Shown here: piece by piece, positions 7,341 through 45,806 of the stretch
Layout: every line of letters begins with the position of its first letter
Numbering within the stretch: position 1 is the stretch's first letter
NCBI GenBank assembly: GCA_951406725.2
Contig: OX597829.1
Coordinates: forward strand, 31,248,001 to 31,312,000
Reading direction: 5' to 3'
Origin: Octopus vulgaris
Lineage: Eukaryota
Length of the DNA: 64,000 bases
The notes under the pieces: model-generated
Told to the model about the DNA's origin: nothing
The model's input: only the letters and a program-made list of their open reading frames with translations
Database searches by the model: none
Translations under genes and position numbers: made by a program

Positions 7341-7735
7341 TTTAACAGTGGGAGTGATAGATGCAAATTATTTGCCAGTCTTCTTTCTACTGCCACTACA
7401 ACACACTACAGTTATAACAGACATTCTCTGGATATATTATGGAGAGAGAGAGAAGTTGTAGATGATATTGTTGCACTTTGTTTGCCAACAAGTCCTAACT
7501 GCTTAACTACATTATACAATAAGAAAACATACATACACGCACACATAGAGAAGCTCTGGAGATACACACATACATATATATATATATATAATAATAATAT
7601 ATATATATATATATACGTTTTTTTTTTTCATTTTCACCCTTTCTCTTACTCTCATGTTCACATTCAACTTGCTAACTTTCTAATATCGTCGACGGCTACT
7701 TGAACTACCTACCTAACCAGGCTGGCTCAGCCCTA

Positions 7736-7898
7736 TCACCATCGCCACCACCGCCATCATCATCATCATTATTGCTACAACAACCACCACCACCGCCGTC
7801 ATCATCATCATCATTCACCGTCTCACTCAGTCTCTCACTCACTCTTTCACTCACATACACACTCTCACTCTCTTTCATTACCTCTACTCTCATTCCAT
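7736..7898 (+). repeat. YCAY-dense (CCA)n/(TCA)n/TCAC array just upstream of the Nova start codon
   Basis: About 27 YCAY tetramers in ~165 nt by manual count. Confidence 0.8.
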
Positions 7899-7970: not shown

Positions 7971-8088
7971 ATGGCGATGAGTTTCGATGGCATGAATGGG
8001 TCAGATATGGACACATCCGACTCCCGAAAAAGACCCTCAGACGCCGAAAGTGATAGCGGGGTGACGAAGCGCTCAAACCAAGGCGGAG
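7971..8088 (+). CDS. Nova: Nova/pasilla RNA-binding protein, coding exon 1 (N-terminus with NLS-like motif)
   Basis: AAAGATGG start. Reads MAMSFDGMNGSDMDTSDSRKRPSDAESDSGVTKRSNQGG, matching the vertebrate NOVA1 DSRKRP...TKRTN motif. Donor GGAG|GTTAGA, phase 1, compatible with 41201. Confidence 0.9.
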
Positions 8089-17254: not shown

Positions 17255-17305
17255 GTACTATTGGGACACCTGATGACTACAGCTGTGAATATAAATCTGA
17301 TTCAG
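17255..17305 (+). CDS. Candidate 51-nt in-frame cassette exon of Nova (G-TIGTPDDYSCEYKSDS-G)
   Basis: Acceptor TTTACTTGTTTATTTCTAG|GT and donor TCAG|GTAGGT. Length is 17 codons, phase 1-1, with no stop in the Nova frame. Confidence 0.6.
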
Positions 17306-35513: not shown

Positions 35514-35627
35514 GTATTGAAAGTCAGGTCTGGGCACCCTCATATGCATACGAAGATTGTCAACCCGGGGACGAACCGTTGAGACATAATATGATGGCTT
35601 CTCTTCAAATTTGGCACAAAAACCAAG
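35514..35627 (+). CDS. Candidate 114-nt in-frame cassette exon or alternative N-terminus of Nova
   Basis: Strong donor CAAG|GTGAGC (phase 1) and a weak acceptor TCTTGATAG|GT. Open frame G-IESQVWAPSYAYEDCQPGDEPLRHNMMASLQIWHKNQ-G. Local GC/CpG island within an AT-rich intron. Confidence 0.45.
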
Positions 35628-38375
35628 GTGAGCCATGAATGCATTGCTTTGATTTTTCCCATAGCCAAATTTTTCATTTGTTCTCATTACAATATCTGTC
35701 AGGAGAATGATGTCACTTGCCAAATTTAGCATAATTCTATTTTGTGAACGAGTGGATAAAACATGCATGTCTTAAATAACTTTTTAAAAAATGGTAAAAT
35801 CAAACATATCCATGCTTTTTGTTTGTGTCTAACATTAAAGTTTCAGGTGGCTGATTCTGGACATCACTGTTACTTTTGTCCTTTTCCCTTCGGTGTCCAT
35901 TTATTCCCATGCAAAATTTTGCCTGGCTTGATTGGAAATTTGCGATTATCATTTTTTCAAGGCATTTATGTAATGAGATTTCAGAAAAACTTTTAATGCT
36001 TTAAGCCCTTGCCTAGCCTTCCTCTTTAGTGGCTATTAGATTCTTTATTTCTCAAATTGACAGCACTATCCTTATACATTTATGGCCATTGCTTGTTGCA
36101 CACCTGTAATCTAATTTTTTTTTTTTCATTCGAAAGTTACAGTATTGTATTCTAGATTTAGTATTCCTTTTCTGTATTTACTAACAAATTTTATTTTTCC
36201 TTATATACATTCATTAGTTTACTCAATTTTACACCAGATACACTTTTAATTTTATTATATATAGTTTAGATGGTTTTGAACTGCTTCTATACAGTGATAG
36301 CAGTATGTGCAAGTTCCAGTGTTTATAAGTGTTCATTTAAGTAGATATCCTTAGCAGTGAGGGTTGAGACCTTCAAAACTTAGAGCAAGCCATAAATAAC
36401 TAATGAATATGTTGGTTTCATACATTCTATGTAACTGAAAAATTTTCTCAGGATAATCACTGGATCTTAATGTAACATATTTTGCTTTATGACTAATGTA
36501 ATTAAAATATGAGAATAGTTGTGAAGCAGTTTTTTTATGGAATAAAAATAATGTACAATTTGTGATAGGAAAGATTTGCTTGTGAATCTTGTTTTCACTG
36601 CTAAAAACCAAAGAATAATATCTATTACAAACAAACAAATGGTATGGTCCTCAGTCCACACTTGCAACACATTCAGAAATTGAGTTTTGAATCACCATAT
36701 TAAAATCAAAAGCATCATCTTCCAATAGTTGAAAAAAGTGGGTTTGTGTACATAGTAATGAAATATTCCATAATTGATTTCTGCATTTATGTGACTGCCT
36801 GACATATGCTACACTGCAATAAGAATATATGCTCCATAAAATTGGGGAACCAAAGTTTATACACACACAGACATACATGTCACTGGCAATATTAGTTTTT
36901 CAATTGCCCTAATGCCCAAGAATGGCATATGCAGGCAAAAATATCAAGATCAATATTTCAAATGTACTGGAAATAGGAAGAAATAGCTTACAAGATTACA
37001 AATGATGGGCGAGAAATGGTACCAGTGAGAAATTTTTATTTTTTTCAAAAAATCCTTTTTTTTTCTTTTTTCTAGCAGTTGTTAATAAATTTATGGATAA
37101 ATAAGTTTATAACTGAGGTGTTTTACCATCAGTGATAAAATTATGAGTTTGTTATTTAAAAAGATCTCCCTTGGCATATATTTCACAAAGACTTACTTTA
37201 TTTTTTAAAGGTACATATGTAGGCATTATTTAGTTGATCACTTAGACTGCTGAAAAATGGCAAGATCTGATTGAATATCTACTTAGAATGATCCACTAGT
37301 TACCAGTTTACATTTTCATTTATTTTTACTAACAGACACTTGGACTACATTTTTTTTTTTTTTTTAAACATTTAGCAACCTTGGCAGTCTTTTGATCTTC
37401 CTCTCCCTTATGTTTTTTTTAAAGTTTATAAAAGTGTAGCTAAGAAAATTGAAAAAAGTTATTCCTTGATCTTGGTTCTCATAAATATGAGTTCTGGATT
37501 TTCTTTTTGAACAATTTTATATTTCATTAATTGAAATTGACTTTGTCTCACGTTTCCTTTCTGTACTCAAATGCAACTAATATAAAATAATTCAACATTA
37601 AAAAATAAGCTATTTATATAACATTTGCTGTGGTTTTGAACATATATAATGCATATATATGTTATATATATTGTATATATTATGTATATATTGTATATAT
37701 TATATGTATAATATTATGTATATTTTATATATTGTATACATTATATATATATTTTGTATTAACTGTTTTTGCAAAATCTCATTGCCTAATACTAATTTGG
37801 ATTTTTTTTTCTATTAAAAGCTGAATTTATTTCAATTTATTTTAAATGACTATTATTTTAATCAATGAGCATTTTTATATTTTTATATAACTATATTAGG
37901 ATTTACTACATCAACTGTGGCTAGAAATAAATTAAAATTATATGCCATTGTAGTAAATAATTTTTTTAATGTTTTACTTTTAGTATTGAGTGATTATATA
38001 TTTAACTCATCTGAACGTTATAACCAGTATTTTTCTTGTGTAGGTGGGGTAAGTCATTTTGGCAAATCTGCTCCTTTCCAAACAATACCCATTTAAGCTT
38101 ACTATTTTGCAAGTTACTAATTTTGGTATTTGTTTATAGCAAGTTGATATTGACACCATATAAATCAACCAATTTTTGGTTGATAGCCAAGTATCTTTGC
38201 TTCACCCACAGTTTCTATCTTAACAATAGTAAAAAAAAAATCACCACATACCTGGCTTATGAATAAATATATATGTATATAATGTCTGCACTCTTTCTGA
38301 TTGCAGTGTAAGTACTAAATAAGCAGAACATGTCCACAAAGGGAGCCCAGCATTTTTTTTTCTCATTTGTTTGTT

Positions 38376-41200: not shown

Positions 41201-41341
41201 GGGAGAATGTCCACCTTAAGATTTTAGTTCCAAGTGCAGCTGCTGGAGCCATTATTGGCAAAGGTGGAGAGACAATTGCACAAGTGCAGAAAGATGCAGG
41301 AGCCAGAGTAAAGATGTCGAAAGCTAATGATCATTATCCTG
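41201..41341 (+). CDS. Nova: Nova coding exon 2 (KH1, first part)
   Basis: TTACAG|GG...CCTG|GTAACT. Reads [46 protein letters not shown] with a GKGG loop. Phase 1-1. Confidence 0.96.
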
Positions 41342-41922: not shown

Positions 41923-42068
41923 GGACATCCGAACGAGTGTGTCTTATAACTGGTTCAGTTGAAGCTGTTAGGAAAGTCCATACTTTTATTATGGAAAAAA
42001 TCAGGGAAAAACCAGAACCTAACCCCAAATTAGATGAAAATAAAAGTACCTATGAACGGCACCGGCAG
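41923..42068 (+). CDS. Nova: Nova coding exon 3 (KH1 end plus linker)
   Basis: TTCCAG|GG...CAG|GTAATA. Reads TSERVCLITGSVEAVRKVHTFIMEKIREKPEPNPKLDENKSTYERHRQ. Phase 1-0. Confidence 0.96.
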
Positions 42069-42760
42069 GTAATAATGTTATAAATTTTCTTTTATATTAT
42101 ACATATATATATATACACAAATATATATATATACACACAATATGCACATATATATATACATATTTATGCACATTATATATACTCACATTTGTATATACAT
42201 GTTTATATATATACATTTATAAATGTGTGCATATAATTATCCCCTTTGTGTGTGAGTGTGCGTGTGTACATATATAGTTTAGAGATGTATTTAAAGTAAA
42301 TAAAATCTATGAAGACTTAATTTTAATTTTTCATATTTTTGTCTACATACTTTAATTAATTTGTGTAACTGAGAAAAAATTGGAGGAAGTGCATGAAACT
42401 GAGGAAAATCTATTCTTAGTTACCTAAGCATCTTCCTTTCCAATTTGATTGAGTCGAATCTTTTGGAATTTCTGATATATTTGAAAGTAGATTAATAATA
42501 TTGTTAAATTATATTTAACTATAGTTTTTGTTCATTTTGCTTTTTCATTTTGTTAATGCTACTAAATCAGTGGTCAGAATTAGCTCTTCTACCTCCAACC
42601 CAGGCAGCAAGAGCCCTTTATTAAATAGGCTGTCTGATAGGCTGCTATTTCCAAACTATAAAGTTTCTCTTACATCACCTTCTGATCTGCTCACTTTCCT
42701 TACTTTTTGTACATACTGAAATCCCAAAATAGGTTAAAAAGAAATCATTCTTACTTTCAG

Positions 42761-42832
42761 ACAATAGATTTAGCTGCTCCAACCCAATTTGACAGGCTCC
42801 AGCCCTCTGATAGTCTAGAACCATTTTTACAG
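42761..42832 (+). CDS. Candidate 72-nt cassette exon between KH1 and KH2 (TIDLAAPTQFDRLQPSDSLEPFLQ)
   Basis: Acceptor TCATTCTTACTTTCAG|ACA and donor TTACAG|GTCAGA. It is 24 codons, phase 0-0, matching the host intron, with no stop. Confidence 0.65.
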
Positions 42833-43793
42833 GTCAGAGAGTCCTTTGAACTTTTTGAAACCGCTAAGGTCAAGTTTTGGCCTTTTTATTTACATATGGC
42901 TGGACATTTTGTTTCAGTATTCAAGGAAATTGAAATTGTATTCCAAACCATTTATTGATGGTAATAAATGTTCAAATAAATATATAATATATATTTTGAT
43001 CTAGCTCTGAATGTATAGGAAGTTCTTACTAAAGTATGTTTACTGTGGATGAGAACTCATTTTTATATATTTAGAAATGTTAAACATTACTATATTTTAG
43101 TACAAAATTCTTAAGGATGACTTTATTTGGAAATTAAGCATGTTATTTAAGTATATATATATATATATATATATATTTTATATATATATATATATACACA
43201 CATACATATATTAGCTGGTTTTTACATGATGATCAGGTCACTGCTGCCTCCTCTTTCCAACTGCATTCAGCATGTCCAAATTAATTTAGCATTTACCTGT
43301 TTCATTTTTAAGGCTAAGACAGTTCTGCATTTTATAATAAATAACTGTTAACCACATTTGTTTGATTTGGTCCTTGATTTAGTAATGAATTATAGTTAGT
43401 TTGTTTTTTATACAGTTTGAACATTAGTCAACTAAAGATATGAAATTGTCTTATAGTATGTTATACTAATGAAATATTTATTCAAATCTCTCCAAAAATT
43501 TGCTGATAATTTTTAATTTCACAAAAAAAAAAACCTGTGGTTAACTAAATAAAAATAAGAATTTTATTAAAAAAGTTTTTCTTAAATATTTTAAAATGTA
43601 ACAGACAATAGATCATTTTTAACAAGATTAACAATTTAAATTTGGTTTGATACATATAAAGTCATTCATTTTGATCATAAAAAAATCATAATTAATTTGT
43701 AACTGAATCAAAATTAAAGCTATTTATGTATTTATTATCTAATGCTCCATGTTTGTTTTTAATTATTAATTGTTGTTTTACCAATGTTTTCAG

Positions 43794-43947
43794 GTGAAAA
43801 TCTTAGTCCCTAATAGTACTGCAGGAATGATAATTGGTAAAGGTGGCATTTATATAAAACAAATTAAGGAGGAAAGTGGAGCGTATGTGCAGATATCTCA
43901 AAAGTCAAAAGAAACAAATTTGCCAGAACGCTGTGTAACAGTTGCAG
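43794..43947 (+). CDS. Nova: Nova coding exon 4 (KH2)
   Basis: TTTTCAG|GTG...GCAG|GTGAGT. Reads [51 protein letters not shown]. Phase 0-1. Confidence 0.97.
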
Positions 43948-44640: not shown

Positions 44641-45806
44641 GTGATGTTGAGTCCAACAGAAGAGCTGTTGACATGATATTACAGAAGATTGTTGAAGATC
44701 CTCAAAGTGGAAGCTGTCCAAATATCAGTTATGCAGATTACACAGGACCAGTGGCCAGTGCTAATCCTACCGGGTCCCCTTTCGCTAACACGGACTATAT
44801 ACAAAACAGAAGTACAGAGATAGGATTAGCTAATAATAACTTTGGTGCTTTTGGTTTTGGTTTTAATGGAAATGCCTTTGGAAACAATATAGGAGCTAGC
44901 ATGACGAATCTGAACTTGAATGCAGCTTTAAGTGGTGGCACTAGTAATAGCATTAACAGTACAGCTTTGGATAACATAAAAATAACTCTGCGAGGAAATG
45001 GATTTTCAGATCAAGCAACCGAAGAAATAAGTACTGCCATGAACACTTTAGCTAGCTATGGTATATTAGCTAGTATGGGTTTAGGAATGGGCAGTTTGAA
45101 TAATTTGGCAAACTTAGGAACTGGAAGCGGTCTAGGAACAGGACTGAATCTTAATTCATCTGGCTTGCAAGGCTCTAGCATGATGTCAAGTAGTACAACT
45201 TCAACCACAAGTGTGAGCAGCCCTTTCTTTAACACTACCACCAGTACTAACAGTGCTGGTAGCCTTTTTGGTCCAGTTGGCAGTGGGTCATCCGGATTAG
45301 GAAGTTCAGGCTCCACTGGAGCCAACTCTAGTCTTTTCAGTAATTCCTCTCCTAGTATTGGCAACGAAAGATATGGGGGAAGTCCAATGCTTAATGATTC
45401 ATTTGGCAATGCTGCTAATTATCCCAGCAATCCTGGGTTCACTGGAACTCCAAGCATAGCTGGCGACAGGTCTCCTAATGTTAATCAAAATTCTTTTGGC
45501 CTCGGAACTGGCATCTATAGCCCTGCTGATGACAAATCAGCCCCGGCAACTAAGCAAGAGATGGAGGTTCCGGAGACAATTGTTGGAGCTATCCTGGGAC
45601 CTGGCGGGAAAGGCATCGTGGAAATACAACAGTTCACGGGCACCAACATTCAGATTTCAAAAAAAGGAGTCTATGTACCTGGTACCCGTAATCGTGTTGT
45701 CACCATAACTGGTACTCCTAACAACATTTCCAAAGCCCAGTTATTTATCCAGCGGCGCCTCCAGCAAGAGGAAATGAAGAGGGCTCGTCAAGCTTCTACC
45801 CGTTAG
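44641..45806 (+). CDS. Nova: Nova last coding exon (KH2 end, long G/S/N-rich linker, KH3, stop)
   Basis: Long pyrimidine tract ending TTGTAG|GT. Contains KIVEDPQSGSCPNISYA..GPVASANPTGSPFA (Nova signature) and KH3 EVPETIVGAILGPGGKGIVEIQQFTGTNIQISKKG..PGTRNRVVTITG. TAG at 45804-45806. Confidence 0.97.

Follow-up and report, generated by a model that had tools for sequence, protein, structure and literature searches.

A 24-residue cassette exon between KH1 and KH2 of octopus Nova, probably gained independently of vertebrate NOVA1 exon 4

The Nova gene and its cassette exon

The stretch of Octopus vulgaris DNA analysed here (64 kb, G000:C16:31248001-31312000; referred to as the window) carries a Nova gene. 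The host gene is of the Nova/Pasilla family: its product has three KH domains, is nearest to Nova-1/2 and matches the solved Nova-1 KH1/2 and KH3 chains, while the last coding exon shows 100% identity with Octopus sinensis RefSeq Nova-1. The ESM Atlas returned generic KH matches alone, all under 0.9. A cassette exon lies between the exons that encode the end of KH1 and the start of KH2 (Table 1), and alignment to the solved Nova-1 KH1/2 chain (2ANN, E 2.7e-53) maps the cassette insert to the KH1-KH2 linker.

Table 1. Features of the octopus Nova locus and of two further Nova genes in the same genome. Positions are those of the window unless a prefix is given.
Feature	Position	Strand	Remarks
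Nova exon A, first part of KH1	41201..41341	+	joint 41341>41923 in 4/4 runs; RefSeq protein match
Nova exon B, KH1 end and linker, phase-0 donor	41923..42068	+	
Intron 5' of cassette, 692 nt, GT..AG	42069..42760	+	
Block around cassette with zero differences from organism F	42547..43101	+	
Four scattered YCAY (42675, 42691, 42745, 42821)	42675..42824	+	background density, no cluster
Cassette exon, 72 nt, phase 0-0, 24 aa in KH1-KH2 linker	42761..42832	+	inclusion and skip joints; RefSeq
Intron 3' of cassette, 961 nt, GT..AG	42833..43793	+	
Sole published-pattern YCAY cluster between exons A and D	43662..43689	+	105-132 nt 5' of exon C acceptor
Nova exon C, KH2 start	43794..43947	+	
Exon D, last coding exon: KH2 end, long linker, KH3	44641..45806	+	reads cover its start
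C5 paralog (L012), intronless, skipped junction	G000:C5:48665463-48667037	-	single 556-codon ORF
C13 paralog (L011), obligatory 25-aa insert	G000:C13:53101600-53104302	+	

The cassette is confirmed as a real in-frame alternative exon of octopus Nova. The RNA basis is three raw runs of one study (X21, X22 and X23), of each of which about 6/100 was read and which carry no tissue labels. The upstream inclusion joint (42068>42761) was present in 11, 3 and 12 reads, the downstream inclusion joint (42832>43794) in 6, 5 and 9, and the joint that skips the exon (42068>43794) in 22, 1 and 3, with two further probable skip reads in X22 counted apart. The original prediction had named the two inclusion joints as its check: both were found, together with the skip joint, in all three runs. 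Inclusion amounts to approximately 0.28, 0.80 and 0.78; X21 differs from X23 (Fisher p 0.0045 and 0.003, for samples without tissue labels). Contigs of X1 and X14, which belong to two further organism codes, contain both inclusion joints, which places the cassette in the RNA of three organism codes. A 57-nt contig from X14 (depth 478) continues 12 letters past the donor into the intron with three mismatches: these are exactly the differences between the start of the intron and the start of exon C, and the contig is most likely the skip joint. Among the O. sinensis RefSeq Nova-1 isoforms (X1-X10) the identical 24 residues are present in nine of the ten and skipped in X4. Octopus Nova is therefore made as two in-frame isoforms that differ by 24 residues in the KH1-KH2 linker, at a ratio that depends on the sample; an artefact or a cryptic exon is ruled out by the reads plus the RefSeq annotation.

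The exon occurs once in the genome, is flanked by ...ttcag and gtcaga... and keeps the reading frame open; the predicted length, phase and product agree with both sequence and reads. The splice sites, which had been called strong, are canonical but not notably so: the pyrimidine tract is short and preceded by a purine run. Four of the 24 encoded residues are S or T and there are zero S/T-P sites. No A-to-G change of the kind left by RNA editing was seen in the exon at 10-20 reads, a depth too shallow for exclusion.

Elsewhere in the gene, a second cassette exon of 114 nt (35514-35627) encodes 38 residues before KH1; reads join it, and also an exon ending at 17305, to 41201. Alternative first coding exons of the RefSeq isoforms map to 5238, 7971, 11445 and 11980, and the one at 7971 alone among these four has an RKRP...KR basic motif. 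In the last exon there is a possible alternative donor at 45212, with an acceptor at ~47397 followed by three codons and a stop: such splicing would fit KH3-less gene models in Octopus and Argonauta records (P0056, P0063).

Conserved flanks and control of the cassette

Organism F, the one close relative on which the conservation test is based (~1% diverged), differs from the window by 11 substitutions and five indels over 1446 covered intron and exon bases. All 16 of these differences lie farther than 150 nt from the exon (p 0.009, or 0.04 when substitutions alone are counted); with 100-nt flanks the same test gives p 0.04 (substitutions alone, p 0.10). Runs X16 and X18 are identical to the window where they cover it and are uninformative on conservation, X16 having no coverage of the exon. 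The upstream part of the invariant block has a G+C content of 0.36, as against 0.22-0.23 in the remainder of both introns, and the block contains no RBFOX motif (TGCATG). The invariance of the flanks suggests that they serve regulation of the cassette, which is probably a regulated exon.

The original prediction went further: the cassette was taken to be under the same autoregulatory switch as the mammalian exon. PMC5343574 and PMC4191425 describe Nova1 as driving the skipping of its own exon 4, with multiple YCAY in that exon and in the intron behind it; in octopus there is no YCAY cluster in or just behind the exon. The four YCAY were predicted at the correct positions, but they are no denser than chance. 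From position -100 to the end of the exon (172 nt) there are four, against a gene-wide mean of 2.5 with four or more in 24% of windows (p 0.24), and dinucleotide-shuffled versions of this piece average 4.0 (p 0.62); across the whole 64 kb the density is 16 per kb. Enrichment at the cassette was thus rejected, the count being at background. The Nova cluster pattern printed in PMC8379844 has zero matches in or near the cassette; the mark by which Nova-silenced exons are recognised, clustered YCAY within the exon or shortly before it, was not found. The sole cluster near by lies ~830 nt downstream, close to the next acceptor, and the window as a whole holds 96 merged pattern clusters, where approximately one per kb is expected by chance. 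Motif content thus offers no support for self-regulation of the cassette by Nova, and the claim of a shared autoregulatory switch is unsupported.

An independent origin could nevertheless be combined with mammal-like logic, Nova binding its own pre-mRNA and so controlling the cassette. All four YCAY, one of them exonic and three in the last 100 nt before the exon, occupy what the Nova map (PMC3165201) gives as the silencing zone; they lie inside the invariant block, inclusion differs among samples, self-regulation is common among splicing factors, and there are strong YCAY clusters elsewhere in the gene (7628-7898 and 35633-35687). Against this, the YCAY near the cassette have spacings of 16, 54 and 76 nt, do not exceed background density and fail the published pattern, while the one cluster within reach (43662-43689) lies in a position from which bound Nova is described to enhance, which is the opposite sign. 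X21 has the most Nova reads and the lowest inclusion, while X22 and X23 differ twofold in reads at equal inclusion (three runs only). We regard control of the cassette by Nova as unlikely.

The long cluster at 7628-7898 lies 5' of the first ATG. Six YCAY occur within 200 nt 3' of the second cassette exon (35514-35627), where the published-pattern cluster at 35633-35687 falls in the enhancing zone; judged by motifs, that exon may be a better candidate for self-regulation by Nova than the linker cassette.

Inserts at the same junction and paralogs in the octopus genome

The short Nova1 of human, mouse and chicken has Q followed by V at the start of KH2 (PMC2014790, supplement 1), and the long mouse Nova1 has an insert after the same Q that starts TL (PMC12445529, supplement). 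Counted from these two supplements, the long and short forms have 507 and 483 residues, a difference of 24. Octopus cassette and mouse exon 4 therefore use the same Q|V junction just before KH2 (vertebrate phase being inferred from protein), and the predicted coincidence of junction and length is supported by the Nova1 proteins. Both exons are alternative and in frame, and both genes produce the two isoforms. The claimed likeness of the peptides fared less well: the initial T is shared, whereas overall identity to the vertebrate peptide quoted in the original prediction is ~3/24 (ungapped, by eye), which is unconvincing. The mammalian exon, reportedly the subject of Dredge et al. 2005, encodes an S/T-rich peptide; the octopus peptide is S/T-poor.

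No 6-aa piece of the cassette occurs in the 672 proteins compared, octopus isoforms aside. Among non-cephalopod molluscs, 129 of 133 proteins span the junction (60 without an insert, 69 with one of 1-5 aa); in clusters of ray-finned fish, whose members may not be true NOVA1 orthologs, 174 of 181 span it and none of the 174 has an insert. The four mollusc and seven fish fragments lacking the junction were excluded. In a search of fish proteins, insert-free proteins rank first among the best 120 of 309, a bias of which the cluster listings are free. An insert is also absent from sea urchin and, in the supplement of PMC12445529, from Ciona Nova and mouse Nova2. Absence here is absence from annotated proteins, rather than from genomes or reads, and an exon of low inclusion may escape gene models; the junction survey does not include squid, nautilus, amphioxus, hemichordates, sharks or tetrapods.

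Other inserts are found at this very junction: 18 aa in one of two nemertean isoforms (P0442), 9 aa in 10 of the 14 members listed for penaeid shrimp (P0228), 7 aa in a stomatopod (P0257), 5 aa in a chiton (P0182), 4-5 aa in locust (P0117), 5 aa in clams, 2-3 aa in snails and 1 aa in scallop. Those of nemertean, penaeid, locust, chiton, clam, snail and scallop each occur alongside an insert-free isoform, and those of shrimp and chiton are of microexon size. The nemertean, decapod, stomatopod and chiton inserts were rejected as homologs of the cassette (shuffle p 0.12-0.98); those of nemertean and chiton have short by-eye likenesses to it, none of which beats shuffles. On these protein comparisons the Nova KH1-KH2 junction is a hot spot for inserts, and the fact that shrimp, nemertean, chiton and clams have alternative inserts there weakens any link to large brains.

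Two further Nova genes, C5 and C13, are present in the octopus genome (Table 1). The C5 paralog is sister to the C16 gene (support 95/92) and has relatives in argonaut and in other cephalopod-like records, including one of cuttlefish. An intronless ORF, located on another chromosome and nested with the parent gene, is what is expected of a retrocopy: C5 is, to judge from its sequence, a processed copy of the cassette-skipped form.

The C13 paralog is less simple. It has neither the A/B nor the C/D intron; an intron of 589 nt is retained at the Q| donor, and there is an extra 461-nt intron without counterpart in the C16 gene. The 25 codons that follow the 589-nt intron run directly into KH2 via CAC GTG, and since none of the five internal AG is in frame, the insert is obligatory. 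Insert and cassette align end to end, best at the C-terminal end (SGSLD vs SDSLE). The protein shuffle p is 0.005-0.007 (0.01 for the O. bimaculoides copy, 0.45 for that of argonaut), and an equally good score is reached by 7 of 1944 Nova linker windows and by 2 of 62 stop-free intron peptides. At the DNA level, with a gap of one codon, 30/72 positions are identical (p 0.004 by codon shuffle and 0.018 by base shuffle; 0.08 for a free-gap alignment): this is the level seen in the adjoining, certainly homologous linker (24/60), the end of the C16 intron giving 20/75. No leftover intron similarity was detected between C13 and the C16 gene. The C13 branch is long and lies among molluscs; the tree test does not reject a cephalopod clade (p-AU 0.275), though a quick tree places C13 lower. 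From these comparisons we put the chance that the C13 insert is homologous to the cassette at about two in three. If this is right, C13 would derive from an RNA that was partly spliced and included the cassette, or else be a duplicate from which introns were lost, and the cassette would have existed before octopus and argonaut split. Alternatively, a 75-nt acceptor shift would have added a further independent insert to the hot spot.

The two paralogs look like frozen isoforms, C5 without the insert and C13 with an obligatory one. It is an established concept that duplicated genes or retrocopies can divide splice isoforms among themselves, and the intronless, insert-free C5 and the obligatory insert of C13 resemble such a case; C13 departs from it in keeping an intron 5' of the insert plus an extra intron, and is thus at best partly processed. 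A possible partition of isoforms into paralogs is the most interesting lead.

Origin of the cassette and its meaning

The reading we favour, at a probability of roughly 0.65, is that the cassette is an exon gained in the cephalopod lineage, independently of NOVA1 exon 4, and predicted to tune Nova via the linker. The site of gain would be the KH1-KH2 intron, which is old and of phase 0. A new exon in this intron would be tolerated only if of phase 0-0 and a multiple of three in length: the same place and phase would therefore come for free, leaving equal length as the only coincidence. Because the intron is ancestrally phase 0 and the site is a linker, both frame-keeping exons and shifted splice sites would be tolerated, and would recur. 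Cephalopods and the NOVA1 lineage would each have fixed a separate 72-nt exon; that of cephalopods may (less surely) predate the octopus-argonaut split, because a duplicate common to these animals seems to carry the exon fixed. The invariant flanks would hold regulatory elements, likely read by factors other than Nova. Inclusion would lengthen the linker to 50 residues, from 26, between conserved anchors, and the longer, flexible linker, the insert being presumably disordered, would loosen the arrangement of KH1 and KH2 and so alter RNA binding or splicing strength without NMD. A change in linker length is thus predicted to alter the engagement of RNA by KH1 and KH2. The prediction is made by analogy with Ciona Nova, which needs both of these domains (PMC12445529), and with Nova1, whose short form was slightly more active than its long one when tested on a minigene (PMC5343574 and PMC4191425).

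For the Nova and eMIC programs, exons gained convergently in the same genes and positions are described in PMC8379844 and PMC8797185. As in the cases treated there (ExOrthist and eMIC, respectively), non-orthologous exons of distant phyla recur in the same gene and sometimes in the same intron; the octopus case differs in that the host is the regulator itself, and in the exact match of length. The latter counts against convergence, which must treat the 24-residue match with the vertebrate exon as chance.

The original prediction left open whether the exon is deeply conserved or convergent. Were it the ortholog of NOVA1 exon 4, of bilaterian ancestry and repeatedly lost or shrunken, then the shared junction, phase, length and initial T would be explained, and the alternative inserts of several phyla could be its remnants. 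Short linker exons can, moreover, diverge past recognition in 550 million years. Yet the short inserts mostly start with V or end with Q, as is expected of shifted donors (GT) or acceptors (CAG), and the octopus-type exon is missing from the examined lineages in between: orthology demands losses in at least chitons, gastropods, bivalves, other protostomes, echinoderms, tunicates, Nova2 and ray-finned fish. Together with the few identities to the peptide quoted in the original prediction and the contrast in S/T content noted above, this makes a conserved bilaterian exon very improbable, there being no matching exon in the other lineages examined, and convergence is favoured. Marginally less credible still is a young, near-neutral piece of intron that became an exon and is tolerated as frame-keeping in a floppy linker. 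The cassette was not found outside octopods and linker inserts are common and diverse, as such an origin would have it; inclusion nonetheless reaches ~0.8, with RNA from three organism codes, the exon and its flanks are invariant, and there is a probable fixed copy in an old paralog. A bolder version of independent gain – that cephalopods and mammals each built a Nova-controlled 24-residue switch, and that octopods froze its two settings in two copies – we consider doubtful in the extreme, if somewhat less so than orthology.

Part of this is already known: the exon is annotated in RefSeq, and convergent exons in the same genes have been described. The O. sinensis isoforms come from automatic annotation, and neither a comparison nor regulation is described in the literature searched; that search, which covered few subscription journals, returned no paper on the cassette, on a Nova hot spot or on the octopus paralogs, and supplements or exon databases may list the exon. 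What is new is the presence in the same genome of two paralogs that look like frozen isoforms.

The function of Nova1 exon 4 is only partly understood, and Nova shapes neuronal splicing in vertebrates. An exon gained independently, equal in size and position, in an animal whose large brain evolved separately, taken with the inserts of other phyla, suggests that linker length is a recurrent evolutionary dial. More generally, agreement in position, phase and length says little for the homology of two exons if they lie in an old intron and at a linker. The octopus provides a natural test set: a single gene that makes two isoforms, and two paralogs that seem to hold one each.
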